A stretch of DNA of 64,000 nt from a virus (taxonomy: Duplodnaviria; Heunggongvirae; Uroviricota; Caudoviricetes): IMG/VR virus record IMGVR_UViG_3300044878_000136, positions 125,232 to 189,231 of that record. One strand, 5' to 3'. Of this stretch, positions 1,954 to 59,400 are shown piece after piece. Each line of letters begins with the position of its first letter. Within the stretch, counting starts at the first letter, position 1. Under the pieces are notes generated by a model that was not told the DNA's origin, ran no database searches, and saw nothing but the letters and a program-made list of their open reading frames with translations. The translations under genes were made by a program, and so were the position numbers.

Positions 1954-4494
1954 ATGTTCGCCGCGCTCAAGCAACGCCTCGGGATTGTCTCCGTGTCGAC
2001 CACCCCGACCTACATTGTAGTGCAGGGCATCGACACGATGAAGTTGTTCAAAGACATCTACGCCGCATGGGGTAGTACCGTCATCCAGAAAAACATGTTT
2101 TCCATTGCCCGAAGCTCTGAGTTGCGCTTGCGTCACTTCTTCGGCTTGGACTTCCTTTATATCCTCGAGACTCTGTACGACGCACCCCAAACGCGTCTAC
2201 CTCGTCGCATCATCGCCAAAGTGATCGAAGAACTCAAGCTGCAAACCTGGTTGGGTCAGATCGATCGTGACACCAAGTCCATCACTGACATGTCGGTCGT
2301 GGACAAGCAGATCCCTTACCCACTCAAGCCGTTCCAAAGCGGCTTCGTGCAACACTACGGGATCATGGTACCGGCATACCGTCTGAAGGGCTACATGCTC
2401 GATGCGGGACCTGGTACGGGCAAGACGCTGACCAACCTGATCCTCGGTGCTGCACTGCACGCTGAGAAGGTGATCATCCTCACGCCGAAGAACGCGGTCA
2501 ACCGGGTGTGGGAAGATTCGATCAAGGATCTGTTGCTGAACAAGAAGTCGTATTGGGTATCCACGTCCGGTGAAATGCCGACCATGGATCAACACTACTA
2601 CATCTGCCACTACGAAGCACTGGAAACCCTCCTGGGCTTTATCAAGATGAATGAGCCTCGTCTCAAGAACATCTTCGTGGCTCTCGACGAATCCCACAAC
2701 TTCAACCGCATCGATGCACAGCGTACGCAGATGTTCATCGAACTCTGCCAGATGAAGTGCGTGGCCTGGTGTAACTGGGCATCGGGTACTCCGATCCTCG
2801 CACTGGGTGTGGAGTGTATTCCATTCCTGCGTTGCATCGACCCGCTGTTCGATGCCGAGTCTGAGGAACGCTTCCGTAAGATCTACGGTCGCGATGCCAA
2901 GCGGGCGAACGACATCCTGCGTAACCGGATTGGTCACTTGAAGTATCACGTTCCTAAACAGGACGTGGTGAACATTGAGGTCACCACCAAGCAGCACATG
3001 GTGAAGATCCCCAATGGTCAGGAGTTTACGCTGAACGCTATCGGCGAACGTATGAAAGCGTTCATTGAAGCACGGCGTAAGTACTACAAGGAGAACTTCG
3101 GCAAGTACCGCACGGACTACAACCGTGCCCTCGAAGACTTCAGGCTCTCACTCAACGGTCCTCAGGAACGTATGGCGTTTGCCAAGTACCAAGAGTGCTT
3201 CAAGACGGTATCCTCTGGCTTCGATGCGAAGCTCATGAAGGAAGAGGCCGCCTACTGCAACAACTACGAGTTGCGGACCATCATCCCGCGTCTCCATCCG
3301 ACTGAGAAGCCTCTGTTCAAGTCGGCTCGTAGCGTGCTGAAGTACGTTGACCTCAAGATCATGGGTGAAGCCTTGGGCGGTATCCTCGGCCGTGAGCGTA
3401 CGCGCTGCCACGTTGAGATGTTGCCTCACATCGACTTCAGTCGTTTCATCGACGATGCCAAGAAGAAGACGTTGATCTTCACCAGCTTCGTTGAAGTGGT
3501 TGAACGCAGTAACGACATCCTCAAGGAAACCGGTTACGATGCAGCACTCGTATACGGTTCGACCAACAAGGACTTGGCTGCGATCGTTCAGAAGTTCTAC
3601 AAACTGCCAGACCTCAACCCTCTGGTGGCGACGTACCAGTCGTTGTCGACCGCTGTTCCACTGACAGCCGCCAACAACATCATGCTGCTGAACCAACCGT
3701 TCCGTTCGGGTATCCGCGAACAGACCGTCGCGCGTGCGGCACGTCTGGGTCAGGACGAACCGGTCAGTGTGTGGGATATCCTGCTCGATACTGGGGATCA
3801 ACCAAACATCTCCACTCGCAGTAACGACATCATGGAATGGTCCCAACAGCAAGTGGCCTCCATCATCGGCGTGCAGAACGTCGACTTGGACAGCTTGGCG
3901 TTGGAAGCACGCGAAGGTGAACTCGATGGGCATGACACGATTACTCAACTGGCCCTCGAGGCCGCAGATGTTGCTTCGTTTGAATCAGGGGCTCCGGTTG
4001 CTAGCGGCCAAAATGCCCTTACCACCGCAACCACCGATCGCCTGCCTGCTTTTCTGTATCACGGCAGCATGTATCAACAAAATGAGTTGATGCCTGGCTT
4101 CAAGCGTTCGGGTCAATTGGTCAAGTGGGATGGGTGTGAGGATAACACCTGGCTGTACTCCACGTCTGACCGTGAAGAAGCGGTTCTGTTGGGCATCTCC
4201 TCCGCCATCGAGAAGACGGCTGGGTTGAAGCGCTACAGTCACGTCGCGGGAAGCAAGGTCATCAACCTTGAGTTCTACGAGAACCCGATCAGCGTGGATC
4301 AGATCTATCGCTTGCCGATCTATCTGTACTCCTTGATGGGTGATAAGCATGACGGTTGGATGCCAAACTACAACGCCAGCAACGGGATGGTCACTGAGTA
4401 CAAAACTCAGCAGACAATCACCGGCGGTGTAGCGCGATGCGAAGCGGTCGATGTGCGTGACTTCCTCCACGGATGGCGGATCAACATCAAGTAA
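1954..4494 (+). CDS. SF2 helicase, SNF2/DEAD-like, with C-terminal extra domain
   Basis: It has Walker A DAGPGTGKT, motif II DESH, motif III SGTP and a helicase-C region ending QTVARAARLGQ. A C-terminal domain of about 160 aa has no recognised motif. Confidence 0.7.
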   Translation: MFAALKQRLGIVSVSTTPTYIVVQGIDTMKLFKDIYAAWGSTVIQKNMFSIARSSELRLRHFFGLDFLYILETLYDAPQTRLPRRIIAKVIEELKLQTWLGQIDRDTKSITDMSVVDKQIPYPLKPFQSGFVQHYGIMVPAYRLKGYMLDAGPGTGKTLTNLILGAALHAEKVIILTPKNAVNRVWEDSIKDLLLNKKSYWVSTSGEMPTMDQHYYICHYEALETLLGFIKMNEPRLKNIFVALDESHNFNRIDAQRTQMFIELCQMKCVAWCNWASGTPILALGVECIPFLRCIDPLFDAESEERFRKIYGRDAKRANDILRNRIGHLKYHVPKQDVVNIEVTTKQHMVKIPNGQEFTLNAIGERMKAFIEARRKYYKENFGKYRTDYNRALEDFRLSLNGPQERMAFAKYQECFKTVSSGFDAKLMKEEAAYCNNYELRTIIPRLHPTEKPLFKSARSVLKYVDLKIMGEALGGILGRERTRCHVEMLPHIDFSRFIDDAKKKTLIFTSFVEVVERSNDILKETGYDAALVYGSTNKDLAAIVQKFYKLPDLNPLVATYQSLSTAVPLTAANNIMLLNQPFRSGIREQTVARAARLGQDEPVSVWDILLDTGDQPNISTRSNDIMEWSQQQVASIIGVQNVDLDSLALEAREGELDGHDTITQLALEAADVASFESGAPVASGQNALTTATTDRLPAFLYHGSMYQQNELMPGFKRSGQLVKWDGCEDNTWLYSTSDREEAVLLGISSAIEKTAGLKRYSHVAGSKVINLEFYENPISVDQIYRLPIYLYSLMGDKHDGWMPNYNASNGMVTEYKTQQTITGGVARCEAVDVRDFLHGWRINIK

Positions 4495-4496
4495 GC

Positions 4497-4547
4497 AAAA
4501 AAAAGAAAGTCTAGATGCAGGAGCGTGAGCTCCTGCATCTATGCTGT
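4497..4547 (-). terminator. intrinsic terminator for leftward transcripts, with conserved CAGCATAG box
   Basis: The minus strand reads CAGCATAGATGCAGGAGC-tcac-GCTCCTGCATCTAG followed by CTTTCTTTTTTTT. It sits between convergent genes. Confidence 0.7.
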
Positions 4548-4837
4548 CAGTCTTTCGACTCTGGATCAATGCCGATACGGCGCAACACTTGATCCGTTGA
4601 CGCGGGTGGTGATGTTCGACTGTATACGACTCCAGCCTTTGTAAGTAGTTCCTGAGCGAGTTCACGCAACTCTTCGTCAGGTCTATCTTTGAGGCTATCG
4701 TCTAACATCTTCTGAATCTCCACCACCCCATGTCCCTTACGGAGCAACGCGGCTATGAGGTGTACCCTCAGCAACTTTACCGCGAACGCCCACGGGATAA
4801 CCAGATCATCTACTTTCTTATCCATCACATTTTCCAC
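4547..4837 (-). CDS. hypothetical protein
   Basis: ORF in a minus-strand array. Composition is typical of the other genes. Confidence 0.5.
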   Translation of the reverse strand: MENVMDKKVDDLVIPWAFAVKLLRVHLIAALLRKGHGVVEIQKMLDDSLKDRPDEELRELAQELLTKAGVVYSRTSPPASTDQVLRRIGIDPESKD

Positions 4838-5142
4838 TTAGCTGGGATTTCGGTGTTCGTGCGTTTGCAGAACTCCACGTAGGCGGCGTAGATGTCATCG
4901 ATCACCGGGATGATGGTCGAGGAGAAGTAACCTTCCTCAAACCACGCGGTGAAGAACTCCACCAGATCGACGTAGCATTCGATACCACCACCCAGTGCTG
5001 GGAGACGCACCATGACATTGTTGATGTCGGTAGTCTCGTCAGTCAACGTTTCCCAGAGGGTCTCGTCGTACGCATTACGGACGGTGAACAGAACGCCTTC
5101 AGTGGCGTGGAAATGTTCTGGGTTGTATTTGTACTTGTGCAT
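4825..5142 (-). CDS. hypothetical protein
   Basis: ORF in a minus-strand array. Confidence 0.5.
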   Translation of the reverse strand: MHKYKYNPEHFHATEGVLFTVRNAYDETLWETLTDETTDINNVMVRLPALGGGIECYVDLVEFFTAWFEEGYFSSTIIPVIDDIYAAYVEFCKRTNTEIPAKWKM

Positions 5143-20736: not shown

Positions 20737-22347
20737 TTACTCGAGACGGTCGATGACGTAGTTGGTCAGACCGAACTCGGTGCGGACCTGCACACGACGA
20801 GGAACGGCAGTGCTGAGACCTACCGCCTGATCAAGGGTGGTGGTGTCCATGTTACCTTTCAGCGAGTACGCTTGGATCACGCGTTCAGCCACAGTCAGCT
20901 CTGGACGGAGCAGTTCTGCGAAGAGTGCCAGACCGCAGGATTCGCGAGGATCGCGCAGACCTTTGACCAGCAGGATATCCAGATCGTACTTCTTACCGCG
21001 TTCGCCACCCGTCCAAACAGCAGGCGGGGTAGTGATGCCGACGACGTCCAGCAGTTGATCGACGTACAGGCCGAGGTGACGGCATGGCTGTGGATCATTG
21101 GTGGTGTGCCAGGCGTAGGGGTTACGGTTGTCTGCCAGGTCGTAGAACCACAGGCGGCCAGCGTCAGGGTTCTTCGGAGCCGAGAAGAAGACATACTTCT
21201 CTGCGATCAGCGCGAAGGTCTTGAGTTCCAGGGCGGTTGGCAGGATCTTCTCCTTGAACTTCTCCCAGGTCATGCGACCACCATCAGCCACCGTCTGCGC
21301 TACCTGAGGCTTCTCAGTCGCCTGCTTGGTAACCAGGTCACCGAACAGAGGCACTTCCTTTGCAGGAGCTTCTGGAGCGGCTGGTGGCGTCCACACGGTC
21401 TGACGGATCTCGTCGAGGGAAGCCAGACGGCGTTCCATGTCACCAGCACCCAGACCCAGTTCAGCGAACAGCTTCTGCGCTACCTGCACGTTGCCTTCGG
21501 TAGGTGGCGCTTCTTTCTGACGATAGAACTCTGGATCAACACGCAGGATGAAAGTACGCAGAACCGCTTCAGGAGTTCTGCCATCGGCGATGCCGTCCAG
21601 CAGGATGTTACCTTCGACGTTGTTGGTGATCTCAGCGAAGGATGGAGCAACCATCGCCACTTCACGACGCACCAGGTTACGGATCTGCCCGACGTTCTTG
21701 CCATCGAGACCTTTCACGAAACCGTACAGCCATTCCAGCTGAGGCAACCAACGTTCCATCGCCTTACCGGCCGACTTGAGTTGGTTGATCGCAGCACCCA
21801 CGATTTCCGGCGTGTAGCGCTGAGTAGCTTTCAGCAGCAGGTCGAACGAGGTGTTCGCCTTACCGCGGATAGTACCGATCAAGTGGAACGGTGCGACGTA
21901 CTTCGGCAGCGACTGGACTTGGTAGTGAGTCCAGCCATCAGTCTCACCCGTGCCCCAGGTGTCGTGTTCAACCACCTGGATTTCCGAGATACCCGAACGC
22001 AGCACCAGGTTGTGGATCGCAGTGACCGACGCCTTGTACTCTTCCGGAGTGTTCTCAGGATCCCACAGCGCGGAGACCAGTTCGCCTTCAGGGGTGACGA
22101 ACACCATGTGGCCAAAGCGCTCGAAGAACGTACGGCAGCTCGAGCAGTTGTGGTGCTGTTGCTGTTCTTCCGGGAACGCTTTACGGTAGACCGTAGACAG
22201 ACCCTTGGACTTGGTGACGAAGAGGCCTGGACCGTAGGCTTCCATACGTTCGGCAAAGGTCTTCTGGACCAAGGCACGCAGTTGGTCGAAAGATGCGCCA
22301 GATTTGGTTTCTGCTACAGCGCCTTGGGTCAGTTGTTCGTTGCTCAT
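20737..22347 (-). CDS. hypothetical protein, 536 aa
   Basis: Large ORF with typical composition and a Cys cluster HHNCSSCRTF. No family recognised. Confidence 0.6.
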   Translation of the reverse strand: MSNEQLTQGAVAETKSGASFDQLRALVQKTFAERMEAYGPGLFVTKSKGLSTVYRKAFPEEQQQHHNCSSCRTFFERFGHMVFVTPEGELVSALWDPENTPEEYKASVTAIHNLVLRSGISEIQVVEHDTWGTGETDGWTHYQVQSLPKYVAPFHLIGTIRGKANTSFDLLLKATQRYTPEIVGAAINQLKSAGKAMERWLPQLEWLYGFVKGLDGKNVGQIRNLVRREVAMVAPSFAEITNNVEGNILLDGIADGRTPEAVLRTFILRVDPEFYRQKEAPPTEGNVQVAQKLFAELGLGAGDMERRLASLDEIRQTVWTPPAAPEAPAKEVPLFGDLVTKQATEKPQVAQTVADGGRMTWEKFKEKILPTALELKTFALIAEKYVFFSAPKNPDAGRLWFYDLADNRNPYAWHTTNDPQPCRHLGLYVDQLLDVVGITTPPAVWTGGERGKKYDLDILLVKGLRDPRESCGLALFAELLRPELTVAERVIQAYSLKGNMDTTTLDQAVGLSTAVPRRVQVRTEFGLTNYVIDRLE

Positions 22348-22380
22348 ACTTCTTCCTTAATCACAAACGCGGGTTGTTAT

Positions 22381-22608
22381 TTAGTTTGGGAAACGTACAG
22401 TCATGCCGGGAATGTCAATAAACGTCACGATGTACGCTACGCAATCCCGGAAACGGTTAGAAGGAATGGGCTGGACTTCAATCTGCCAACCCATGTCGTG
22501 CAACGCGCACATTGTTGCGGCGTCAGGATAACCGACCATCACTACGGTCAGGAATTGACGACCAGTCTGCTTAGAGACTACGTGACGTTCTACGTGGAGA
22601 CCGCTCAT
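22381..22608 (-). CDS. small hypothetical protein
   Basis: ORF. Its start overlaps the stop of the upstream gene (ATGA). Confidence 0.35.
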   Translation of the reverse strand: MSGLHVERHVVSKQTGRQFLTVVMVGYPDAATMCALHDMGWQIEVQPIPSNRFRDCVAYIVTFIDIPGMTVRFPN

Positions 22609-23294
22609 TCATTCACCGGTGCCGGACGAGTGTGGGGAATACCCTCTTCTTCCAGCAGGGCGATAATCGACTCGGCGTAGTCCAGTGTGAGGATAGGTCG
22701 CAGCGTCGCCGTGTAGTTCTTCGCCTGAGCCAACAACCGACGACGTTCTTCGAGACTGTAGTTGTTCTCGAGGTCTGCGTCATGCTCAGCCACACGTTGG
22801 TCGGCCTGCGCCTTGTCTTCAGCCGCCTTGGCGAGTTCTTCAGCAGTGGGCGGTGGTTTAGCCGCTTCAACAGCTGCGACACGCACCACTTCGGCTGCAT
22901 CGGTTTCTTTGGCCAACGCTTCCACGGTGACCTTGAACTCGTTGATGAATTGAGCAGCTTCCTCACTGTCCAACGCACGACTGACGTAAGTACCGCGGCC
23001 GAAACGTTTGTAGTAGGTGAAGACCACATCACGCCAGACCATCACGAACTCATCGTCACCCATGTGGCGGGCTTCGAAGAGATCGCAAACAAATTGGTTG
23101 CCATGCTTGGGCCACAGTGGGTCTTTGTCATGGTCGAAGTTCTGGGCGATCCACTTACGCAGGCCGTCCATCTGTTCATCGATCCATTTACCCGTATCGG
23201 TTTCGATCAGGTAAACCGAATGGCCAGCTTCCGCAGCTTCGTCCGGATCTTTGAATTTCACAAACAGTGATACATCTTTAGTGGCGTTATTCAT
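22605..23294 (-). CDS. hypothetical protein
   Basis: 229-aa ORF with an Ala/Glu-rich C-terminal half. Confidence 0.5.
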   Translation of the reverse strand: MNNATKDVSLFVKFKDPDEAAEAGHSVYLIETDTGKWIDEQMDGLRKWIAQNFDHDKDPLWPKHGNQFVCDLFEARHMGDDEFVMVWRDVVFTYYKRFGRGTYVSRALDSEEAAQFINEFKVTVEALAKETDAAEVVRVAAVEAAKPPPTAEELAKAAEDKAQADQRVAEHDADLENNYSLEERRRLLAQAKNYTATLRPILTLDYAESIIALLEEEGIPHTRPAPVNE

Positions 23295-23346
23295 GGGGGC
23301 ATATTCCGTCTACGTTAGACATGTGATGATGACGTTCTGTGAGATT

Positions 23347-23943
23347 TTACATCTTACGGAAAATCGACCTGAGTTGGGTTGGGTTGAACACGCAATACTC
23401 GGGGAAATCGGCTGAGCCGTAACCATTACCGCGATGGATAGCGCCGTCGTAACCACGCTCGATCAGCTTTTCCACTTCTTCGGTATCCGCAAAGAACGGA
23501 TAGGCTTGGAAGTAGAGTTTGCTGAGTTGTCCGTCTTTGCAACGGAGGTAGTGGTCCACGTCTTTATAGTAGCCGACACGGTTGATCTTCTGTTTCCAGT
23601 TATCCGTGGCTTCAATCCAGCTGGCGAACTTGCGGGCAATCCGCATAGCTTCCAACAACCCCAATCGAGCCGCCACATCGGACAGCTCGAGGAAGGGATC
23701 GTTGGGCTGGTTGACGAAAGGTTTCTTCATGCTGATGCGCAGCGGGTAGATCCGAGCAGTATCCTCGAGTCCAGCCTTAGTCTGCGTGGGATCCGCATAA
23801 CGGTTGGCGACTTCTATACATGCAACATAGAAGGCGCGAGTCTTCGACCGTAGATGGTTCGTATCAGGATGAGAAACCTCACCCCGATAGAACACACCAG
23901 ACAGGTCAGGAAGAGATGGTCGTTCGACAATCCCTCTGGCCAT
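23347..23943 (-). CDS. hypothetical protein
   Basis: 198-aa ORF. Confidence 0.5.
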   Translation of the reverse strand: MARGIVERPSLPDLSGVFYRGEVSHPDTNHLRSKTRAFYVACIEVANRYADPTQTKAGLEDTARIYPLRISMKKPFVNQPNDPFLELSDVAARLGLLEAMRIARKFASWIEATDNWKQKINRVGYYKDVDHYLRCKDGQLSKLYFQAYPFFADTEEVEKLIERGYDGAIHRGNGYGSADFPEYCVFNPTQLRSIFRKM

Positions 23944-23945
23944 GT

Positions 23946-24218
23946 TTACTTCTCCTTATGGCTCTTGCCGACGAGTTCGGCTCGGTTCCAGCACAGGCGG
24001 TATGCCTGATTAACACCCGCGTCGGTCAACCCTTGAGTTGTGACCGTTACAATGCAACTACGCATGGTCTCAACGATGACCGAATCAGTTCCTTTATCAA
24101 CGGGAGCTACCTTTACCGCTTCACTTGCACGGGTCATTTTCAGAACCCCAACAATTGTTGCGAACGAGGCTACTACCGCAACTGCCAACACTGCACTAAC
24201 AAGGAACTTCTTTTTCAC
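23946..24218 (-). CDS. small secreted protein
   Basis: Signal peptide MKKKFLVSAVLAVAVVASFA. Confidence 0.45.
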   Translation of the reverse strand: MKKKFLVSAVLAVAVVASFATIVGVLKMTRASEAVKVAPVDKGTDSVIVETMRSCIVTVTTQGLTDAGVNQAYRLCWNRAELVGKSHKEK

Positions 24219-24228
24219 GTACTTCTAC

Positions 24229-25122
24229 TCACGGTTTGGATTTGGAAAGGATGGCTGTGTAATAGACGCTGGTACCGATGAAGCGCTTTTCGATCTCCCA
24301 CTCAATCGTACGAGATCCGTAGTCGAACTGCACCATGCCTATATCTTTGCCATCGTATTTCAAACGATACTGAAGTTGATCGATGTCAGCTTCGACATGG
24401 ACCAACTCGAACGATTGCGGACGCTCATCCTTCCACCGACCTTCACGGCTGGCGAAGCTGATGTCCTTGATACCCGTCACGTAAGTCTGGGTAGACTGGT
24501 TAACACCGGCCTGGAGGTTGACACGCCCACCACCGTAACCCATGACGAAGTGCGACTTCTCGGTGACTTCGTCTTTAGCGACGTTGCCATCTTCGGTCAT
24601 ACCGCGTTCTTTGAGCAGGTAGTTCTTGCCGACCTTGAATAGGTGTTCCAGCGCACAAGCGCAGGCCGAGGACAGGGTGTAGTTCTTACCGACGAAGTTC
24701 TCGGTCGGAGCGGCGGAGTTGATGCTCCAGTACCAGCTATTTTCACTCTCGCAGAAGGTGATCTCGTGACCGACCTGGAGTACTCCGCACAACCAGTGGA
24801 TCTCGAGGTAGGCTGCGATGTACGCCGGATCCGCCGGGTGGTTGAAGTTGGGGAGATGTACTTCATCGTCCTTCAACCACTGAGGGAAGTGGTCACCGCC
24901 AAGAGGTTGCCAACGAATGAGGTCGTTGATTGCACGCTGCTTGGCTTCACTGATGTCAGCAAACTCCCACTGATCAATACCAGGGATGTAGTGGGTGATG
25001 TTAATGACTCGACCTTTCGGCTGGAAGTCACCATGGGTGGACTTGATCAGGAGGTTGATCTTGTCCCAGGTTTCCACATTGGTTTCCGGCAGCTTAGCCA
25101 GACGGTTTGCGAAATCACTCAT
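24229..25122 (-). CDS. hypothetical protein
   Basis: I moved the start to ATG 25122 (MSDFANRL...), which has TGAGG upstream. This abuts the stop of 25124..25855. Confidence 0.5.
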   Translation of the reverse strand: MSDFANRLAKLPETNVETWDKINLLIKSTHGDFQPKGRVINITHYIPGIDQWEFADISEAKQRAINDLIRWQPLGGDHFPQWLKDDEVHLPNFNHPADPAYIAAYLEIHWLCGVLQVGHEITFCESENSWYWSINSAAPTENFVGKNYTLSSACACALEHLFKVGKNYLLKERGMTEDGNVAKDEVTEKSHFVMGYGGGRVNLQAGVNQSTQTYVTGIKDISFASREGRWKDERPQSFELVHVEADIDQLQYRLKYDGKDIGMVQFDYGSRTIEWEIEKRFIGTSVYYTAILSKSKP

Positions 25123-25123
25123 G

Positions 25124-25855
25124 TTAAACCTCAGTAAGTTTGTAGGAAGAGTTGACGATCTCACGACTGATCGGGATAGCGCCACGACACTTGCTGGCCA
25201 CGATCGAGCACGTCAGCGCTTCTTCTTCAGGATCGTACACAGCGGGGGCACAGACGAACGCGATGTCGAACTCCATGGTGACGTTGCGCTGGCGCTCATA
25301 ACCACCTACAGCGACCTTTGGCAACCATTCGTCTGCGTCAGGGTCCATACGCCACAGTTGACCAGCCGTGTAGCACATGGGACTACTGGTGACGAACAGT
25401 ACGCCTGCTGGTGACAGCGCGCTGCGCATCTTGCGGATCTGCTCACGGGTGCCGTGATATCGATCGGAAGCACTGTCTTCGATGATCAGGTAACGGCAGG
25501 TGCGTGTACCGTCTTCCAGATCTGCCAGTATGTCCAGAATCTCTTCCGGATCAAACGTGTGGTAGGTCTTGACAATGACTTCCACTGCCGGTGCCACGTT
25601 GTGGCGGGCGTACGCTTTCAACTTGGCCTCGGTCTGCATCGAGCGCGTCAGATAGACCACCAAGGTGTTATCCTCGTAGTCTTCATCCGGTGGCGTACTC
25701 ACAGCCGATTTGAACAGTTGCTGCATAGGCCAGTTGTAATCGGTACCCATCAACCCTTGGACGAGCACAGCCTCCCCAGCAAAGAACTGGGGACGGTGAG
25801 TCAAGGTGAGGGCCAGATGACATTGACCCAGAATCATTTCTTGACGATGAGTCAT
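25124..25855 (-). CDS. hypothetical protein
   Basis: 243-aa ORF. Confidence 0.5.
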   Translation of the reverse strand: MTHRQEMILGQCHLALTLTHRPQFFAGEAVLVQGLMGTDYNWPMQQLFKSAVSTPPDEDYEDNTLVVYLTRSMQTEAKLKAYARHNVAPAVEVIVKTYHTFDPEEILDILADLEDGTRTCRYLIIEDSASDRYHGTREQIRKMRSALSPAGVLFVTSSPMCYTAGQLWRMDPDADEWLPKVAVGGYERQRNVTMEFDIAFVCAPAVYDPEEEALTCSIVASKCRGAIPISREIVNSSYKLTEV

Positions 25856-25857
25856 GG

Positions 25858-26070
25858 TTATTCCTTACCTTTGAAAGACTTGAGGGCTTTGTCGATGCCG
25901 AGGATGAGGGCACCAGCAATCGTCAGTGGCCAGGCCACCACCAGCTCGTAGGGTTTCTTGAGCAGGCGATCTTTGACATCCATATCGAGGGTGAGGATAA
26001 ACGTCCACCCACCGAAGATGACGACGCCAGCGATGTAGATCTTGATCAGGAGCCAGATGAATTGCAGCAT
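25858..26070 (-). CDS. small membrane protein
   Basis: Two hydrophobic helices. Confidence 0.45.
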   Translation of the reverse strand: MLQFIWLLIKIYIAGVVIFGGWTFILTLDMDVKDRLLKKPYELVVAWPLTIAGALILGIDKALKSFKGKE

Positions 26071-26071
26071 G

Positions 26072-26362
26072 TCAGTACCCTCGTCTGTTGAAACGTTTGT
26101 CGATCCAGGAATCTAGCCTGGTCGATATGCGGAATGCTGGATAACCGAGAGTGATGCAGAACACCCACCACCCCCAGTTACGATAGTCTTGTACGATAAA
26201 GCCGTGCGCCAACATCACGAGGCCGACAATGATCGGCGCTGCGATGAGACCACCGACTAGAAGGAACTGAATCATTTCCTTCAGACCACCTAGCAGGAGC
26301 AGGCCGAACTTCTTCAGTGCAGCCAATTCCTCAGCAACGATATTTGTCAGCTTCTCGTTCAT
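26072..26362 (-). CDS. small membrane protein
   Basis: Hydrophobic helices. Confidence 0.45.
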   Translation of the reverse strand: MNEKLTNIVAEELAALKKFGLLLLGGLKEMIQFLLVGGLIAAPIIVGLVMLAHGFIVQDYRNWGWWVFCITLGYPAFRISTRLDSWIDKRFNRRGY

Positions 26363-26724
26363 GGTTGTGCTTTACTCATCTTGGTAGCGAGTTTGAGGAG
26401 GTCACGTAGTTCCTTGAACTCCCGGTAGCGACTCAGCTTGTGGTCCATCACTTCGACGTAGTGGTAGATGAAAGCGTTCGCCTCAGATTCGTACTGATAT
26501 TCGTAGCGCTTCCAGTTCCAACGCCACAGAGCAACAGCCCAGTGCGATGTGTACCAGCCGAAGATGGTGGACATTATGGCGTAATAGAAGAAGGCGGTGC
26601 CCATGTTGTTGGGTAATGAGGAGCGCGTGATCTCGTTCCACCAGAGGATGGTCGTGAAATAAATCGCGAGGTACACGATGGCGAGCAGGACGTTAGTCCA
26701 GAGAAACTTCTTTTTACCTAACAT
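26359..26724 (-). CDS. membrane protein
   Basis: I moved the start to ATG 26724 (MLGKKKFLW...), which has TAAGGAA upstream. This removes the overlap with 26735.. gene. Confidence 0.45.
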   Translation of the reverse strand: MLGKKKFLWTNVLLAIVYLAIYFTTILWWNEITRSSLPNNMGTAFFYYAIMSTIFGWYTSHWAVALWRWNWKRYEYQYESEANAFIYHYVEVMDHKLSRYREFKELRDLLKLATKMSKAQP

Positions 26725-26734
26725 GGTGACTTCC

Positions 26735-27100
26735 TTATATCCCGTGCAGAGCCGGTACGGGTGACTTGTGTTCCACACGCAGAGCGACGCGTGCGTATTG
26801 CACTTCACTGTGTTTAGTGAAAGTGTACGTTTTATCCACGGCATTTACGACGAGTGTCATAAGCAACCGATTGCCAGACTTATAGCCGGGCAGGTTCGGT
26901 ACGTAGAATTCAAGGTGGAGTGGGTTACCGTTAACGCGATGTATGAAGGCATGGCCGGAGAACAGATCCCGCGGAGTAAGCCCGCCGAGAGTGATGTCCC
27001 CAATCTCACCATCGAAAGGGAACGGACCGGTACCTTCTTTGATTTCCATGCAGATCCATTCTGCACAGACTACATTCTTTTTGGCGTTATTGTTGTTCAT
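26735..27100 (-). CDS. hypothetical protein
   Basis: ORF. The start is uncertain (27100 or 27118). Confidence 0.4.
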   Translation of the reverse strand: MNNNNAKKNVVCAEWICMEIKEGTGPFPFDGEIGDITLGGLTPRDLFSGHAFIHRVNGNPLHLEFYVPNLPGYKSGNRLLMTLVVNAVDKTYTFTKHSEVQYARVALRVEHKSPVPALHGI

Positions 27101-27107
27101 GCGGATC

Positions 27108-27527
27108 TCACTGATCACAAGAAAACTGGATGATTAGGTCTGGCTCTTTCTGAACCAGCATGTAGACACCTGCAACAAAGTCTCGACCAAGGATGGTCTC
27201 AGCCCCAATGGTAGTCTGGATCAACTCGTGCAATTCCTGCACGGTGTACCAGGTACAATTCTTCTGACCGTGCTCGGTTGTGGCGACAGCGAAGCCGGGC
27301 TCACTGAAGGCCATGGCTTCGATAGCCTGTTTCCAAGTACCGGGGTAACGACCGTTGCAGGGTTTGAAGTTAATGCCCTCGAAGCGATCGCAGAGCAAGG
27401 CTGCTTTCTCGCTGGTCGGAGCATAAGTGAAAGGAAGTTGACCACAGCCATAGTCGGCGACGATCTCAATCCCATTTTCCTCTTCTTCTTTCTTGCGGAT
27501 CACGGTACAACTCAGGTACGTACCCAT
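27108..27527 (-). CDS. hypothetical protein
   Basis: 139-aa ORF. Confidence 0.5.
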   Translation of the reverse strand: MGTYLSCTVIRKKEEEENGIEIVADYGCGQLPFTYAPTSEKAALLCDRFEGINFKPCNGRYPGTWKQAIEAMAFSEPGFAVATTEHGQKNCTWYTVQELHELIQTTIGAETILGRDFVAGVYMLVQKEPDLIIQFSCDQ

Positions 27528-27577
27528 TACTTACTTCCTCAGTATGGATGCGGGGCCAGAGCGACCCCGCAGTTGAA

Positions 27578-28873
27578 TCAGTCAATGATGACGTGGGGCA
27601 TGAACTGCTCTTCGTCAAAGTCATTGACAGCAGAACCGAACTCACGGATGGCGAAACCAGTCGCGTTGGCCAACTTACCCCACTTCGCAGCCTGCGGAGA
27701 CATCCACACACCGCCCAGGAAGTTACGTCCTTCGACCAGACTGCCTGGCTTGACGTATTGTTGGTAGACCATGTTCTCCGATTCATACGGACCATCGGTC
27801 TCTTGCACCGTGGTACCGGTTTCGTCAATGATCTGCACGTTACCGGACATCCGGCCGACCTTTGGCTTTCTGACACACCACTGACGCTCAGCAGCGAACC
27901 TGATGGAACCGAGGTAGGTCGGAATGAACGGCACGCCTTGGGTGTCGAACATACCCGCTTCTTGTAGCTCAGTGATCAGCGAGAAGATACCCTTGTTGGT
28001 CATGAACCACTTGTAGGCTGGTTCCATCACTGCGACGTTCGTGCACCAGCGTTCCCACTGGAGGATCGACTCAGGATGTTTCTCGACCATGTCTTCCCAA
28101 GGCACCAGAACGAACATGCCATCCAACGTAATGCCGTACGCTTCGAATGGCTTGTCGATACGTAGCGATTCGAAACCCAGCGCACGGATATCGACCATCA
28201 TCGCGTTGCCGAACTGATCCAGCGCTTGAGCGATGATCTCGCAGGTAGCCGAGTCATCCACGTATTCACTGTCGAACACCACGCCGATACGGTGGGACTT
28301 GTTGACGTAGCACTCTTTGAGTGCGTTGGTCACCCCTTCGTACCAGTCGTTCGATTGCGACTCGATGTCGTAGTGCTGACCCAGCAGATGGCTCTGCAAG
28401 ACAGTCGACTCGAACAGCATCGTTGGTGTATCGGCATTCAGCTCGTAGATACCAGTAACGGCTTCTGCGACTGGATCGATGGCGAAGTCAAACCTGGAGT
28501 ACAGCGACTGACCCAGCATGCTCTTCTGTTCGTACGTCCATGCCGCGTAGTCGACAAACGCACGGCCTGCCTGACTGCGCAACATCTCGCAATCGAAGTG
28601 CTTGAACAACATGTCGCGGTTAGCGAACGCGTAGTCCAAAGCATTCAACATCACTTCGTACGCTTTGGTCGCTGTGTGTTGGATGCGCTGCATGCCGACT
28701 TCGCTGATGGCGTAGAACGGCAGGTTAGCCTGGTTGGCGATGTGGTAGCCGAAGTGTTGCTTGGCATCCTCGACCAACTCATCCTGGTGCGTATAAAAGC
28801 TACGCAGCCAAGGCATCTCTTCTTCGAGCAGTTTTGGAACGTCCACATGGACAGGATGTTTTACAATTCTCAT
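27578..28873 (-). CDS. glutathionylspermidine-synthase-like ATP-grasp protein (YgiC/YjfC family)
   Basis: Motifs match E. coli YgiC as recalled from memory. SRFDFAIDPVAEAVTGIYELNADTPT matches SRLDLAWDG..LLENNADTPT. C-terminal VRKPKVGRMSGNVQIID...GPYESENMVYQQY matches VVKPIFSREGANVSIIE...GPYGEEGMIVQQF. Confidence 0.75.
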   Translation of the reverse strand: MRIVKHPVHVDVPKLLEEEMPWLRSFYTHQDELVEDAKQHFGYHIANQANLPFYAISEVGMQRIQHTATKAYEVMLNALDYAFANRDMLFKHFDCEMLRSQAGRAFVDYAAWTYEQKSMLGQSLYSRFDFAIDPVAEAVTGIYELNADTPTMLFESTVLQSHLLGQHYDIESQSNDWYEGVTNALKECYVNKSHRIGVVFDSEYVDDSATCEIIAQALDQFGNAMMVDIRALGFESLRIDKPFEAYGITLDGMFVLVPWEDMVEKHPESILQWERWCTNVAVMEPAYKWFMTNKGIFSLITELQEAGMFDTQGVPFIPTYLGSIRFAAERQWCVRKPKVGRMSGNVQIIDETGTTVQETDGPYESENMVYQQYVKPGSLVEGRNFLGGVWMSPQAAKWGKLANATGFAIREFGSAVNDFDEEQFMPHVIID

Positions 28874-29553
28874 GAGCCGCCTCCACCGCCACCTTTACCA
28901 CCACCTCCGCCGCCTCCGGCTTTGGCACCCCCACTACCGCCAGCGCCTTTTACGCCGCCGGTACCCTGAACCCCTTTAGCGCCAGCATAGATGCCGGTGG
29001 TCTTGGTGCTCAGGACAGCCTGCTTCAACGCTGGGGAACCTGGAGGTGTAGCCTTGTAGATTGCTGCACGGCGATTCGCCATGATCGAGCTGGTGTAGAC
29101 GCTCGAATACGTGTTGCGGTTCTTCTTCTCGTCTTCACGGGAATAGTAGCTGCTGGTGCGTGGTGGGTATTGCTGGACGTAATTGCTCGCCCCACCGCTG
29201 GACAACATGTGACCAAGGACTGCACCGCCGGCCATTGCGCCGACGATAGGCCAGACGCTGTTCTCAACCTTTTCAGGGTCCTGAGGGTTCTCAGTGACAA
29301 CGTGCAGCTCTTTCTCGCCTTTGTCATTGACTGCGTAGTACGCGTCTTTGACCGACGGGTCCTTGGCCTGGAGTTTGGCGAGGTTGTCCTTGAGGTCAGT
29401 ATCCTCTTTGGCAACCTCGGCCATGGTTTCCGCTTTCGCCGTATCTTCGACGTAAGCGTCCATGTCTTTACCGCTGACCTCCTGCTCGCAAGCAGTGAGG
29501 CTTAAAGCTGATGTAGCAATCACCGCCGCAGCGGCAAGTTCACGCACACTCAT
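28870..29553 (-). CDS. lipoprotein with Gly-rich C-terminal tail (YgiB/DUF1190-like)
   Basis: Lipobox LSLTAC. Central segment VWPIVGAMAGGAVLGHM resembles YgiB. C-terminus is GGVKGAGGSGGAKAGGGGGGGKGGGGGGS. The gene is translationally coupled (ATGA) to the ATP-grasp gene. Confidence 0.55.
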   Translation of the reverse strand: MSVRELAAAAVIATSALSLTACEQEVSGKDMDAYVEDTAKAETMAEVAKEDTDLKDNLAKLQAKDPSVKDAYYAVNDKGEKELHVVTENPQDPEKVENSVWPIVGAMAGGAVLGHMLSSGGASNYVQQYPPRTSSYYSREDEKKNRNTYSSVYTSSIMANRRAAIYKATPPGSPALKQAVLSTKTTGIYAGAKGVQGTGGVKGAGGSGGAKAGGGGGGGKGGGGGGS

Positions 29554-29577
29554 CTGACGTTACTCTTGGGGTTGGAA

Positions 29578-29874
29578 TTAGTTGTTGACGGCAGCGACCT
29601 TATCGAAGAACGCATCGGGTACATCGATGTCCATCGACTTGAACTTACCGCGGAAGTAGTCGGGACTGACCTTAACACTGTCTTCCGGGATGTCGCGATC
29701 ATCCAGGTTGCTGTAGATCATGCCAGACTCTTCGTCAGCATCCGGGTTATCGTCGAACACTGGTTCGCAGATCGCCCAGAAGCGATGCAGCATTGGGTCG
29801 AAGCCAGCGATGACTTTTACTTCACGGCCGTTGTAGAGGGTGTTGTGCTCAAGATCCATGTTCGTCTCCATCAA
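29578..29874 (-). CDS. hypothetical protein
   Basis: 98-aa ORF. Confidence 0.45.
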   Translation of the reverse strand: MMETNMDLEHNTLYNGREVKVIAGFDPMLHRFWAICEPVFDDNPDADEESGMIYSNLDDRDIPEDSVKVSPDYFRGKFKSMDIDVPDAFFDKVAAVNN

Positions 29875-30320
29875 TTAAAGTGAAGGCATTGCGGCTGTCT
29901 TCTGCGAGTACCGCATCCAGCGTAGGCGCTGCATCTTTGAACACCAGCGCCACCATGTCTTCGACGGCGTAGTTTTCAAAGGTATTCTCGGGAGTGAGGC
30001 GAAGGCGCGTCACGAGTTCAGTCGTAACACCCTCCACCTGCTTGACACGTTTACGGGTGAAGAGCTGATCGCGCTCCCGCTCAGGCGGTATGGCATTCTT
30101 GAAGACCAGGGTGAGGTAATCCGACTGGATGTTCTCGTCGAGGAACTTAACGATCTGGATCTCGACACCCTTGACGTTGGTGCTGACCTTGTAGCGAGTG
30201 ATCTTTCCCCAAAGGTTCTTGCCAGCGCTGTTGGGATCGAACCCAGCATACGCCAGGATATCGTCAATCTCCGTGGGAGGTTCTTTATCAAACCCCACGA
30301 TCATCATTAGAATTGCCATA
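29849..30320 (-). CDS. hypothetical protein
   Basis: The true ATG at 30320 is preceded by AGTCCGTGGAGGACAGT. The track start 30331 is a GTG. Confidence 0.5.
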
Positions 30321-30334
30321 CTGTCCTCCACGGA

Positions 30335-31135
30335 CTATTGGAATTTATGACTCTGCGCTTCGAGCTTGACCAGAATGCGTTGCCCGGTGGTTTGGTTGAC
30401 CAGGACCACTTCGTCCAATACCGGCTTGGACATTTCAAACATGATCTCCCACCCAGCGCTCAACATCACGCCGCTGCGGACGGAGTCGATCTGGTAGGCG
30501 TTCATGCCGTTGGGTACAGGTGCCATGCTGAAGCATTCTGCTCTGACCTGATCTTCGGCGGTCAGTACCTTCTCGCGCTCAACCGTAATGCAGCTGTGCG
30601 GAAGGTCTAACGGCAACCCATTAAGGAAGGCGGCAGTGCCGAAGTCATCGACATAAACCATCCAGACGTCGTACCACCCGATGCGGCGGTCGTCTTTACG
30701 TTTATGCATGCGGATTTCCGAGTGGTGGATTTCCGACCCCATGACCTTGGACAGGTGGGCGAGTAATGCCTCGGTTGTAGCGGGTAAGTCCACGATGCTG
30801 TCAATGGACTTCTGGAAGTTCCCGAAATGTTTCCGGAACTGAATGGTGTTCGGCTTTGGAGCTTTGGGTTGATCGAACGCTGTGTCTGGTGCGTTACGAG
30901 GCGCTTCATCAGACATGCCGACAACGCCAAACCCTTCGAAGTAGACGTACCAGGATTGAGCCCAACCAATGCGACGGTCAGGACCAGTGAACTTCAGGCG
31001 CAGGTCTTCAACCTTGAATTCAAACCCGGTGAGGACGGAAGCGAGGTGGTCGATCAGTGCTTCGGTAGAGGAATCCAATTCCACCAGCGTTTGCATAGCG
31101 TCTTCGAGGGTTCCACGATGTAGGCGAAATTTCAT
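30335..31135 (-). CDS. hypothetical protein with internal tandem domain duplication
   Basis: Residues about 1-90 and 95-185 are clearly related (FR.H.G......TEAL..HL..V ... RRIGW..W.VY..FG). Confidence 0.55.
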   Translation of the reverse strand: MKFRLHRGTLEDAMQTLVELDSSTEALIDHLASVLTGFEFKVEDLRLKFTGPDRRIGWAQSWYVYFEGFGVVGMSDEAPRNAPDTAFDQPKAPKPNTIQFRKHFGNFQKSIDSIVDLPATTEALLAHLSKVMGSEIHHSEIRMHKRKDDRRIGWYDVWMVYVDDFGTAAFLNGLPLDLPHSCITVEREKVLTAEDQVRAECFSMAPVPNGMNAYQIDSVRSGVMLSAGWEIMFEMSKPVLDEVVLVNQTTGQRILVKLEAQSHKFQ

Positions 31136-31243: not shown

Positions 31244-32746
31244 TTACTTGGTGTCGGTGGACACGAGTGGCGTAGCTGCACCGAAGATGGTGGTAGCACG
31301 CGAACCGTTCCAGCGCTCAGCTTCGATCAGTTGAATCAGCTGAGGGTTGTTCTTCAGAGCGTTGGCCTTGGCGACGATGGCAGATGCTTCAGCAGTACCT
31401 TTGGCGGTAATACCTTCGGCTTCAGCGATCATCTGGTTCTTCTTCGCCGTAGCGAACGCCTGCTCTTTAGCTACGTGGGCACGGGCGTCGATGGTTGCAC
31501 GTTCTTCGAGTTTGCCGGCAGTATCAACAGCCACCGCCGCTTTGGCTTTCTCTTCGATCGTCTTTTCGTAGGCATCACTGAAGTTCACGTCTTCGACTTG
31601 AATCGAAACGACGGTAACGAACGGTGGAACCATCGACTTGATGCGATTGGTCAACGCCAGGACGAATGCGGTACGGTCTTGGACGAGGGATTCCGCCGAG
31701 TACAGACCGAATACGTTCTCGACTTCCGTCGGTGTAATGGGTCTGATGAACCGATTCGTGACGCCGTCCAAATCGAGGGTAGTGCGGTACAACGTTTTCA
31801 GCTCGGAGGGATTGGCCGTCCAAGTCACCGATACGCGCATGTCCGCAGGCTGCTGGTCCTTGGAGTAGGCCGACAGCTTTGGGAAGTTGTCCGTCCAGGT
31901 TTGCAGACTCAGGCGTTTGACCGACTGGATGATCGGTACGCGCATGTGCAGGCCAGGGTCTTGTACTTCCGACAACTTACCGCCGGTCAGCAACAGACCG
32001 CGCTCGGTTTCGTTGATGGTGTACACCGACGACCAGAGCAGGCACAGCAGGACGAATGCGCCGAAGGCCATAAAGCCGGATTTGATCTTGTTACGCAGAA
32101 CCTTCGCGAGGAAGGATTTGTTTGCTACTGGGGGTGCTTCGAAGTTCATTGAGTTGCTTTCCTTACTGCTTTGAGTTTCCGCCTCAGGTTCCTCCAAGGC
32201 GGGTGCTTCTTCTACCAACGTCGGTTCCAGCAACGGGTACTGGGGTTCCGGCGGTGGCGGAGGAGGTGGGGTTGGATCAATCGCCGCAACGGCGAGTGGT
32301 CGCAATGGTCGTGGGTCTTGCTCTGCTGGAATCTCCACGGGCCGTAGGTCGGTCCATGTAGCTCGACCTGGCAACCCGTGGATGAGGTGAAGATCACTGT
32401 ACATCAGGATCACACCGCCAGACGCCATGAAGTCTGTGTAATCCAGATTCGGATCCAGACGGTTGAAGTGCTGACTGAGGGGAGGAGCTACCCACAACCG
32501 CGCACCAGTCGAACGACCGATGCGGTTGTTGAACGACTTGGACAAGTACTCAGGCCAACCACGCTTATCGCCGAAGTTGCTGGGGTACTTGCTCAGTTCG
32601 GCGTCATCTTCTACAGATGTCCACCAAACGACTATCGTGTTTTGCTTACGGGTCCAGCGCATCAGCGCTTCTGAATAGTCCATCCTACGATTTCTTCTCG
32701 AAGATACGTTTGACGGAAGTGGTGTTGGAACCCACCATATTGGCAC
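31244..32746 (-). CDS. SPFH/band-7 (HflK/C, prohibitin-like) membrane protein with N-terminal extension
   Basis: A TM helix is followed by an SPFH-like core (YTINETERGLLLTGGKL...GLHMRVPIIQ). It has a Pro-rich linker PTPPPPPPPEPQYP and an N-terminal domain of about 150 aa of unknown type. The start may be the internal ATG at 32683. Confidence 0.65.
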   Translation of the reverse strand: MPIWWVPTPLPSNVSSRRNRRMDYSEALMRWTRKQNTIVVWWTSVEDDAELSKYPSNFGDKRGWPEYLSKSFNNRIGRSTGARLWVAPPLSQHFNRLDPNLDYTDFMASGGVILMYSDLHLIHGLPGRATWTDLRPVEIPAEQDPRPLRPLAVAAIDPTPPPPPPPEPQYPLLEPTLVEEAPALEEPEAETQSSKESNSMNFEAPPVANKSFLAKVLRNKIKSGFMAFGAFVLLCLLWSSVYTINETERGLLLTGGKLSEVQDPGLHMRVPIIQSVKRLSLQTWTDNFPKLSAYSKDQQPADMRVSVTWTANPSELKTLYRTTLDLDGVTNRFIRPITPTEVENVFGLYSAESLVQDRTAFVLALTNRIKSMVPPFVTVVSIQVEDVNFSDAYEKTIEEKAKAAVAVDTAGKLEERATIDARAHVAKEQAFATAKKNQMIAEAEGITAKGTAEASAIVAKANALKNNPQLIQLIEAERWNGSRATTIFGAATPLVSTDTK

Positions 32747-59064: not shown

Positions 59065-59400
59065 TTATTGAACGCGTCTGGGTTTGATGAAGCCTTGCAT
59101 GATCAAGAACTCGACCATGGCTTCACAGGTTGGAGGATTTCCGCGGTACGTCAGCGACAGCTCCACTTCACGCGGGTTGAAGTGTTTGAGGATGCGGTAC
59201 TCCTCGGGGAATGCATTGTCTTCACCGGTGACCACAAAGATGCGTTCATCCGGTCCAGATAGATCTAGGTGCTCACCGAAAAAGTTGATAATAGACATGG
59301 GAGAGAGTTCCATTGTCATGCTTGACGCTCTCAAGTGTCTGGAAGCGCCATTCCTTAACACCGTTCTCGAACTTGACGAAGGTGTCGCAAGCATCTTCAC
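59065..59400 (-). CDS. small hypothetical protein, start uncertain
   Basis: ORF. The N-terminal part overlaps the 3' end of folA. An internal ATG at 59298/59319 is possible. Confidence 0.35.
   Translation of the reverse strand: MKMLATPSSSSRTVLRNGASRHLRASSMTMELSPMSIINFFGEHLDLSGPDERIFVVTGEDNAFPEEYRILKHFNPREVELSLTYRGNPPTCEAMVEFLIMQGFIKPRRVQ

Follow-up and report, generated by a model that had tools for sequence, protein, structure and literature searches.

A 64,000-nucleotide stretch of the virus record IMGVR_UViG_3300044878_000136 (Caudoviricetes; positions 125,232 to 189,231), referred to here as the window, belongs to a jumbo phage and carries on its minus strand two overlapping genes, the upstream one encoding a lipoprotein and the downstream one an ATP-grasp ligase (Table 1). 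The ligase is an intact enzyme of the type represented by Escherichia coli YgiC and YjfC, the lipoprotein coupled to it is DUF1190-like, and the pair is widely conserved in phages. A first-pass annotation, made from the sequence alone, had called the pair a ygiB/ygiC-like two-gene module, and this description is right in substance: the ligase matches the GSP_synth family, its upstream partner is present, and the order of the two genes is conserved.

Both open reading frames (ORFs) lie on the minus strand where that annotation had placed them. At their junction, the stop codon of the lipoprotein gene shares bases with the start codon of the ligase gene, and the resulting ATGA overlap, also reported earlier, is read directly in the sequence. 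The GGAGG located 6 nucleotides (nt) before the ligase ATG falls within the poly-Gly codons of the lipoprotein gene. A 4-bp overlap of the two genes is also found in the distant metagenomic relatives L017 and L019. Antisense to the pair is a plus-strand ORF of 247 residues (28226–28969) with a poly-Pro tract; this tract is merely the reverse complement of the poly-Gly codons, and the ORF should therefore not be called a gene. A megablast search with the 5.2-kb region gave no match in the phage collection, and thus no close sequenced relative is available; a ligase-based search of viral contigs for related loci gave no confirmed locus.

Table 1 Positions of the gene pair, its parts and other features of the window (aa, amino acids)
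Feature	Position	Strand	Basis or remark
GspS-family ATP-grasp acid-amine ligase, YgiC/YjfC-like, long phage-type clade	27578..28873	(-)	431 aa
Divergent DUF1190-like lipoprotein, conserved upstream partner of the ligase	28870..29553	(-)	227 aa
Coupling junction	28870..28884	(-)	GGAGG 28884-28880, 6-nt spacer, ATG 28873-28871 overlapping TGA 28872-28870
Signal peptide and lipobox L-T-A-C, Cys22	29488..29553	(-)	Direct reading; Cys22 invariant in alignment
Hydrophobic Gly-rich segment V100-W-P...GG121, possible membrane helix	29194..29256	(-)	Family alignment
Disordered basic Gly/Lys-rich C-terminal tail, residues 181-227	28873..29013	(-)	AlphaFold2 model
Three small hydrophobic ORFs (70, 96 and up to 161 aa)	25858-26844	(-)	Roughly 0.7-1.7 kb downstream of the ligase
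Band_7/SPFH protein, 500 aa (479 aa in public record)	31244-32746	(-)	9.6e-28, PHROG 200
198-aa protein	23347-23943	(-)	ART-PolyVal sub-threshold, 26.8 bits (cutoff 31.2); PHROG 8642, 1.1e-28
266-aa protein, two copies of an ~80-aa phrog_8785 unit	30335-31135	(-)	6.4e-19; internal duplication
Thymidylate synthase homolog, 539 aa	61203-62822	(-)	~200-residue insertion splits Pfam match; PPCH intact
DHFR	59273-59890	(-)	About 1.3 kb from thymidylate synthase homolog

The ligase is composed of a single synthetase domain. It matches Pfam family GSP_synth (PF03738) with an E-value of 3.8e-42 (145.2 bits, cutoff 29.3), the match spanning residues 53–429 and profile positions 27–371 of 371, and it is a member of phrog_6215, annotated as glutathionylspermidine synthase (1.8e-80). 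As the equivalog model of the bifunctional glutathionylspermidine synthase GspS (NF007801) scores it at 48 bits against a cutoff of 882, the ligase is free of the N-terminal CHAP amidase domain. A phmmer search of the Protein Data Bank (PDB) listed YgiC (7uk8, 1e-13), YjfC (7uk6, 5e-10) and trypanothione synthetase (TryS, 6e-4), with GspS not among the matches listed, which places the ligase, judged by sequence, nearer to YgiC/YjfC than to GspS/TryS. The profile search is thus strongly significant, and the search of the PDB and the structural comparison below likewise bear out the first-pass assignment of the 431-residue protein to the GspS-family ATP-grasp enzymes, nearest to YgiC/YjfC. The motifs on which that assignment had drawn, YELNADTPT (residues 142–150) and RKPKVGRMSGNVQII...DGPYESENMVYQQY, are both present.

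An AlphaFold2 model of the ligase, built from 46 homologs, has a mean predicted local distance difference test score (pLDDT) of 92.2 and a predicted template modelling score of 0.92. Foldseek relates it to YjfC (E-value of 1.3e-26 and template modelling (TM) score of 0.78), GspS (2io8, 1.3e-23), YgiC (8e-22) and TryS (4e-16). Invariant across the 46 homologs, and in an alignment of ten phage enzymes with YgiC/YjfC, are R127, D129, E144, N146, D148, T149, P150, K294, K336, R341, Q371, R410 and H427, which we take to comprise the R-x-D...E-x-N-A-D-T-P motif and the Lys and Arg residues through which GspS binds Mg-ATP and the acyl-phosphate. Since all of these family-invariant active-site positions are intact, the ligase is very probably active. 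In the alignment, phage ligases fall into two clades: a short, YgiC-like clade of ~375–400 residues (LAh_6, phiAS4 and RSL1) and a longer phage-type clade of ~425–460 residues (the window, PhiW-14 gp91, phiPMW gp102, Lu11 gp277 and VPMCC14), the latter carrying an N-terminal extension and insertions. The window ligase shares the fold and the invariant residues of YgiC/YjfC but is about 45 residues longer and only 23–25% identical to them, the long phage enzymes forming a clade of their own.

The two E. coli enzymes are peptide-spermidine ligases in vitro according to Pederick et al. (2023; cited in PMC11762307), and this is also their RefSeq product name; glutathionylspermidine synthetase activity is reported to be absent from both (Sui et al. 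2012, cited in PMC12506659). The first-pass statement that the function of the module is unknown even in bacteria is therefore partly out of date.

The lipoprotein has the lipobox, the hydrophobic Gly-rich middle and the poly-Gly tail that had been noted in the upstream protein. An identical protein is on record from a JGI contig of 263,994 bp, and relatives come from contigs of 248–274 kb, sizes that identify the source as a jumbo phage. An exhaustive profile search yielded 112 representatives of its family; the lipobox Cys is present in at least 90% of these relatives and in all 13 sequences of a curated set, and weak matches to EexN-lipoprotein and LPAM_1 fall on the signal-peptide and lipobox region. 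The hydrophobic segment reads VWPIVGAMAGGAVLGHML, with V100, P102, G110, G120 and G121 invariant in the family and W101 nearly so, and it aligns with the F-W-M-P-L-M-A-G-Y-M-M-G stretch of DUF1190. Its 17-residue Kyte–Doolittle peak is 1.37, compared with a family mean of 1.42 and values of at least 1.6 in 28% of the family. Flanking this segment is a pronounced charge asymmetry, −11 on its N-terminal side and +11 on its C-terminal side. All 81 full-length relatives share the acidic N-terminal and basic C-terminal parts (means of −9.8 and +9.4), as do YgiB (−7/+8), YjfM (−8/+8) and the partners in phages LAh_6 (−10/+6) and phiAS4 (−9/+9). On the evidence of these sequences, the protein may be lipid-anchored with an N-out/C-in topology, which would fit the positive-inside rule.

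In the AlphaFold2 model of the lipoprotein, residues ~30–170 have a pLDDT of about 85, falling below 50 over residues 181–220. The family consensus for this tail is Ser/Gly-rich (...SRSsGvFSS.SSARS.GYS.G(G/S)-COOH), and most PHROG 13808 tails read ...SSARSxGYSxGG. The basic Ser/Gly tails of YgiB (...SSRSMGG) and YjfM (...SSSARGHWGG), with their small final residues, resemble this consensus. In its place, a poly-Gly/Lys tail is found in the window copy, where it ends GGGGGGGKGGGGGGS with GS as the final residues, and in a few close relatives; among close relatives the tail alternates between this type and a Ser-rich ...SARSASHSSSSGG type. Across the 112 relatives, the chain ends in GG in 62, GS in 21, GA in 4 and RR or KR in about 14. 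The mature window protein contains no Cys, and a DPSVKDAYY...G.K.LHVV motif replaces the Cys-rich domain that carries four Cys residues in YgiB and YjfM.

Whether the lipoprotein is a DUF1190 relative is a question of remote homology. A Pfam scan of the window protein gives no DUF1190 match at E ≤ 1, and the protein is assigned to phrog_13808 (8.5e-24). Among its 112 relatives, DUF1190 is the only Pfam family matched repeatedly (16 at E ≤ 0.01, best 1.5e-5); it is matched by four of the 13 curated sequences and, when ten lower-ranked relatives were scanned singly, by seven (PF06693, 13.8–19.3 bits, cutoff 22). These sub-threshold matches cover profile positions ~58–156 of 159, comprising the hydrophobic segment and tail, and never the Cys-rich N-terminal part, whose Cys pairs are borne by YgiB, YjfM and the LAh_6 and phiAS4 partners alike. 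Profile–profile comparison of the lipoprotein family with DUF1190 by hhalign gives a probability of 96.4% with signal peptides kept (E-value of 1.4e-9, 177 columns). With signal peptides removed, the probability is 93.8% (1.8e-7) over 60 columns that span the helix and strands of the N-domain and the hydrophobic segment. The latter comparison used a diverse DUF1190 profile made of YgiB, YjfM and two phage DUF1190 proteins, as the YgiB homologs found were all enterobacterial, more than 82% identical and too uniform. A comparison made with the unfiltered 112-sequence alignment (833 columns) matched only at the lipobox, which we put down to poor alignment quality. The sole Foldseek match of the lipoprotein among viral structures is a 241-residue protein of PhiW-14 (probability 0.96). 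Owing to the hhalign scores, the shared architecture and the conserved gene order, our reading is that the lipoprotein is probably a remote DUF1190 homolog with a remodelled N-domain, outside Pfam-level membership. The first-pass identification as DUF1190 thus survives as remote kinship, common architecture and a coupled, conserved partnership, and fails as regards the Pfam match and the Cys-rich N-domain.

Genomic context, that is, the conserved pairing and the graded partners, is the strongest argument for a ygiB/ygiC-like module. Ligase homologs are found in 73 phage records of the phage collection. The two genes stand in identical order at each of the 17 inspected loci, which are of phage or phage-like origin, and in the two E. 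coli operons, the lipoprotein stop and the ligase start overlapping or lying within 5 nt of each other in nine of the 17; this recurrence is not due to chance. By tblastn, the divergent lipoprotein lies directly upstream of the ligase in 17 of 17 Pseudomonas phage records and in the single Vibrio record (VPMCC14), and in about 40 Aeromonas phage records a true DUF1190 protein is encoded within about 1–2 kb of the ligase. Inspection or hidden Markov model (HMM) searches confirmed the pairing in PhiW-14 (gp89), RSL1 (ORF051), Motura, Ochrobactrum OC (p242) and Bacillus WH1 (gp057), the partners in the last three having a lipobox, Cys pairs and R-G-G-F-G-like or Ser/Gly tails. The metagenomic relatives L008, L009, L017 and L019 have the same pair, with 3-nt gaps or 4-bp overlaps. 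The phage partners can be placed in a gradual series that begins with canonical DUF1190 (LAh_6, 108.6 bits; phiAS4, 78.7 bits), passes through RSL1 ORF051 (15.7 bits) and ends with the window type, with which PhiW-14 gp89 groups. The pair is therefore present in every ligase-carrying phage examined, and the first-pass view that a phage-borne copy is unusual does not hold: the two families were already catalogued as PHROG 6215 and PHROG 13808, and the existing annotation of Aeromonas phage LAh_6 names a 'DUF1190 domain-containing protein' together with a 'glutathionylspermidine synthase'. When related jumbo-phage contigs, matched by length, are compared, the lipoprotein proves better conserved than the ligase (70 versus 51% for P0004/P0250, 61 versus 55% for P0007/P0244 and 61 versus 53% for P0010/P0248).

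The pairs compared with the window differ in their degree of likeness. In E. coli, ygiB-ygiC and yjfM-yjfC have the same gene order and similarly tight coupling (5 and 2 nt apart), with a lipobox, an acidic N-terminal part and a W/F-x-P Gly/Met-rich hydrophobic segment in YgiB/YjfM; they are located on the chromosome, whereas the window pair is on a jumbo phage. Aeromonas phages LAh_6/8/9, 4_4572, phiAS4, 25, 31, 44RR2.8t and their relatives also have a phage-borne module, but one with true DUF1190 partners and ligases of the short YgiC-like clade. Closest are the PHROG 6215 and PHROG 13808 pairs, the window pair's own family, which are arranged in the same order in phiPMW (gp102/gp104), Lu11 (gp277/gp278), HRDY3, Vibrio VPMCC14 and PhiW-14 (gp91/gp89), with 31–38% identity in the ligase and 28–43% in the lipoprotein. 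A published comment called the function of the phiPMW ligase "unclear" (PMC5587285), and the PHROG 13808 lipoproteins in phage pairs are annotated as hypothetical.

Several observations accompany this survey. Two of the ligase-matching records, AGRM01000002.1 and AFYI01000007.1, are Salmonella chromosomal contigs of 0.5–0.7 Mb, and their matches are bacterial ygiC/yjfC rather than phage genes. Citrobacter phages Merlin and Moon, Cronobacter phages CR3 and PBES 02 and the Enterobacter vB_ExiM phages encode DUF1190-like lipoproteins (E-values of about 1e-5, 60–73% coverage) and have no ligase match in the phage collection; as their hosts encode ygiC/yjfC of their own, these lipoproteins might use the host enzyme. 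In LAh_6 (2749–4882 of locus L013), an Ion_trans_2 K+ channel gene (1.4e-12) is followed by the true DUF1190 gene and then by the ligase, an order also found in LAh_8, LAh_9 and 4_4572, which mirrors the bacterial operon of K+ channel, DUF1190 and ATP-grasp genes described in PMC11237479. Bacterial operons with the ligase and DUF1190 also include genes for PspA/CesT-like or band-7 proteins (PspA and band-7 being membrane-stress proteins), DUF350 and polyamine-metabolism genes, and have been interpreted as linking polyamines to membrane dynamics (PMC11237479). In Achromobacter phage Motura (1027–3852 of locus L015), genes for homospermidine synthase, a 127-residue lipobox protein ending ...VRGGFGSTGSSFSAGG and a GspS-like ligase stand in a row, the homospermidine synthase gene thus lying two genes upstream of the ligase, and a substrate-binding-protein gene is located just upstream of the row.

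The reading that we favour, and consider reasonably probable, is that the pair is a phage accessory module (of the moron or auxiliary metabolic gene type) related to ygiB-ygiC and yjfM-yjfC, in which a peptide-polyamine ligase and its membrane lipoprotein partner alter envelope or polyamine physiology. The cytoplasmic ligase would activate a peptide carboxylate as an acyl-phosphate and amidate it with spermidine, putrescine or a related polyamine, thus acting as a peptide-polyamine ligase like YgiC/YjfC and not as a true glutathionylspermidine synthase. Coupling of the genes would have the enzyme made in fixed proportion to the membrane-anchored partner, and the reaction may be located at the inner membrane, with the flexible tail of the partner, or another peptide that the partner presents, as the candidate carboxylate substrate. 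By these means the phage might alter the envelope or the polyamine physiology of the infected cell.

In glutathione, it is the C-terminal Gly on which GspS acts. For this reason, and because -GG termini of eukaryotic proteins can be spermidinylated (PMC12270671), the tail of the partner would be the most attractive carboxylate donor. The eukaryotic case, in which the C-terminal -GG carboxylate of SUMO or ubiquitin is amidated with spermidine in an ATP-dependent manner, serves as an analogy only, as it uses E1/E2 thioester chemistry whereas the window ligase would form an acyl-phosphate of the ATP-grasp type, the two enzymologies being unrelated. That a polyamine is the amine is suggested by the E. 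coli biochemistry, by the bacterial operon contexts (PMC11237479) and by the homospermidine synthase gene of Motura. A bolder proposal, for which we see only a slender chance, is that the DUF1190-type partner is the physiological substrate of YgiC-type ligases, its tail carboxylate being polyaminated before or after membrane insertion. Were this so, a polyamine-tipped envelope protein would represent a protein modification so far undescribed for bacteria and phages alike, chemically parallel to that of SUMO with spermidine, and could allow a phage to reshape the envelope, shut out competitors or disturb polyamine danger signalling.

Several findings weigh against the peptide-polyamine ligase module as set out here. 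The physiological substrate of YgiC/YjfC themselves is still unknown, according to PMC11762307. The hydrophobic segment is only marginally membrane-like on the Kyte–Doolittle scale, and the short RSL1 and Motura partners are without it; both facts weaken an obligatory N-out/C-in topology, which the charge asymmetry favours, and because of them the tail may be periplasmic and, after export, beyond the reach of a cytoplasmic enzyme. In L017 and L019, the partner has RRR at the end of its tail and yet remains coupled to the ligase, the two genes overlapping. A C-terminal Gly as the obligatory ligation site is weakened accordingly, and a glutathione-like terminal Gly is not strictly required. As regards the DUF1190 relationship, the window lipoprotein falls below the Pfam threshold, hhalign with the signal peptide removed gives 52% against a low-diversity YgiB profile, and hmmsearch with the family HMM scores YgiB at 5.3 bits, a value reached by three of 500 shuffled sequences, and gives nothing for YjfM. 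The Band_7 neighbour of the pair (Table 1) is not kept by relatives, being missing from the vicinity of the pair in L008, L009 and the annotated phages, and was rejected as a conserved component of the module.

A different role, which we judge unlikely, would be that of a polyamine sink or counter-defence, in which the ligase lowers or redirects free polyamines by way of abundant peptides and the lipoprotein only localises or regulates it. Intracellular polyamine accumulation blocks the replication of many P. aeruginosa phages, some of which evade the block by preventing accumulation (PMC9992862), and other phages actively manipulate putrescine levels (PMC11898732); a sink would relieve such a block, and the closest characterised relatives of the window pair are in Pseudomonas phages. 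A metabolic sink, however, needs no stoichiometric protein partner, and the module is also present in phages of Aeromonas, Bacillus, Ralstonia and other hosts, for which no such defence is known. Motura speaks on both sides, tying the ligase to homospermidine synthesis, yet making a polyamine rather than removing one.

It is very unlikely that the lipoprotein is unrelated to DUF1190, its likeness being compositional (signal peptide and low-complexity tail) and its position next to the ligase functionally meaningless. The Pfam result for the window protein, the lipobox-only hhalign run and the null score of YjfM would all agree with this, as would a BLASTP comparison with YgiB that is not significant (E-value of 8.4), if collinear. 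Such an explanation would leave unaccounted for the gene order kept in 17 of 17 loci with its frequent overlaps and short gaps, the gradation of partners from canonical DUF1190 to the window family, the hhalign match that extends over the N-domain and hydrophobic helix when signal peptides are removed, and the singling out of DUF1190 among Pfam families.

The names given by Pfam, PHROG and GenBank agree in suggesting a genuine glutathionylspermidine synthase, which would supply a redox buffer or thiol protection during infection; both E. coli GspS and trypanothione synthetase share the ATP-grasp synthetase fold (TM score of about 0.7, query-normalised) and the R-x-D...E-x-N-A-D-T-P motif with the window ligase. 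We nonetheless hold this to be highly improbable. The nearest characterised relatives, YgiC and YjfC, are without that activity in the reports cited above (PMC12506659 and PMC11762307), the amidase domain is missing, and the phage clade has diverged further still. Only a 60-residue stretch of likeness to GspS is detectable by sequence, and the substrate is probably not glutathione.

Least probable of all is the hypermodification of DNA or nucleotides raised in the first-pass annotation, by which the ligase would join a modified base to a polyamine or an amino acid. PhiW-14, a putrescinyl-thymine phage, does encode a homolog (gp91, 33% identical), but the ligase is also found across the 73 phage records, including that of phiPMW, whose DNA was digested by every tested restriction enzyme with a site in it (PMC5587285). 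The partner that always accompanies the ligase is a lipoprotein, secreted or in the membrane, rather than a DNA enzyme, and the window thymidylate synthase (ThyA) retains its catalytic PPCH with a DHFR gene nearby, which points to the ordinary dTMP (thymidylate) route. A search of the window for a thymidine-hypermodification context found only ThyA with DHFR, ribonucleotide reductase (RNR) and an NAD-dependent DNA ligase, and hypermodification genes of the kinase or pyrophosphorylase type did not appear among the 30 window proteins that were scanned. Nothing was found to suggest that the ligase acts on nucleotides or DNA.

Both members of the pair fall into existing PHROG families, and similar pairs have already been deposited, one of them with both names. 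New at the level of annotation is the proposal, drawn from profile comparisons, that phrog_13808 lipoproteins are diverged DUF1190 relatives; new as observations are the joint presence of ligase and lipoprotein in every ligase-carrying phage examined, the conserved tail motif and charge asymmetry of the lipoprotein family, and the stronger conservation of the partner than of the enzyme. The ygiBC/yjfMC module is widespread in bacteria, where its physiological role, like its substrate, is still unknown, and the pair occurs in phages of Pseudomonas, Aeromonas, Delftia, Ralstonia, Achromobacter, Ochrobactrum, Vibrio and Bacillus. Given the pairing in every case examined, the diverged DUF1190 kinship and the stronger conservation of the partner, the substrate should be looked for in the lipoprotein, especially in its tail. 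The small phage versions would offer compact experimental systems, and the module, should it act on polyamines, could represent a phage response to the polyamine-based sensing of threats in Pseudomonas.

The neighbourhood of the pair (20737–31135) consists, as the first-pass annotation had it, almost only of proteins of unknown function and three small hydrophobic ORFs, which are separated from the ligase by ORFs 27108–27527 and 26735–27118. The 70-residue hydrophobic ORF has a sub-threshold match to the GhoT/OrtT membrane toxins (17.8 bits, cutoff 22.1). ART-PolyVal, the family matched below threshold by the 198-residue protein, denotes the ADP-ribosyltransferase of polyvalent phage proteins. 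Beyond this neighbourhood, the Band_7 gene shares the strand of the pair and lies 1.7 kb upstream of it. Its product comprises a Pro-rich N-terminal region, a hydrophobic segment and the SPFH/Band_7 domain, and the position of the gene recalls the band-7 variant of the bacterial operons (PMC11237479). Other window genes specify a collagen-repeat protein, an SNF2-type helicase, the NAD-dependent DNA ligase and class I RNR subunits.

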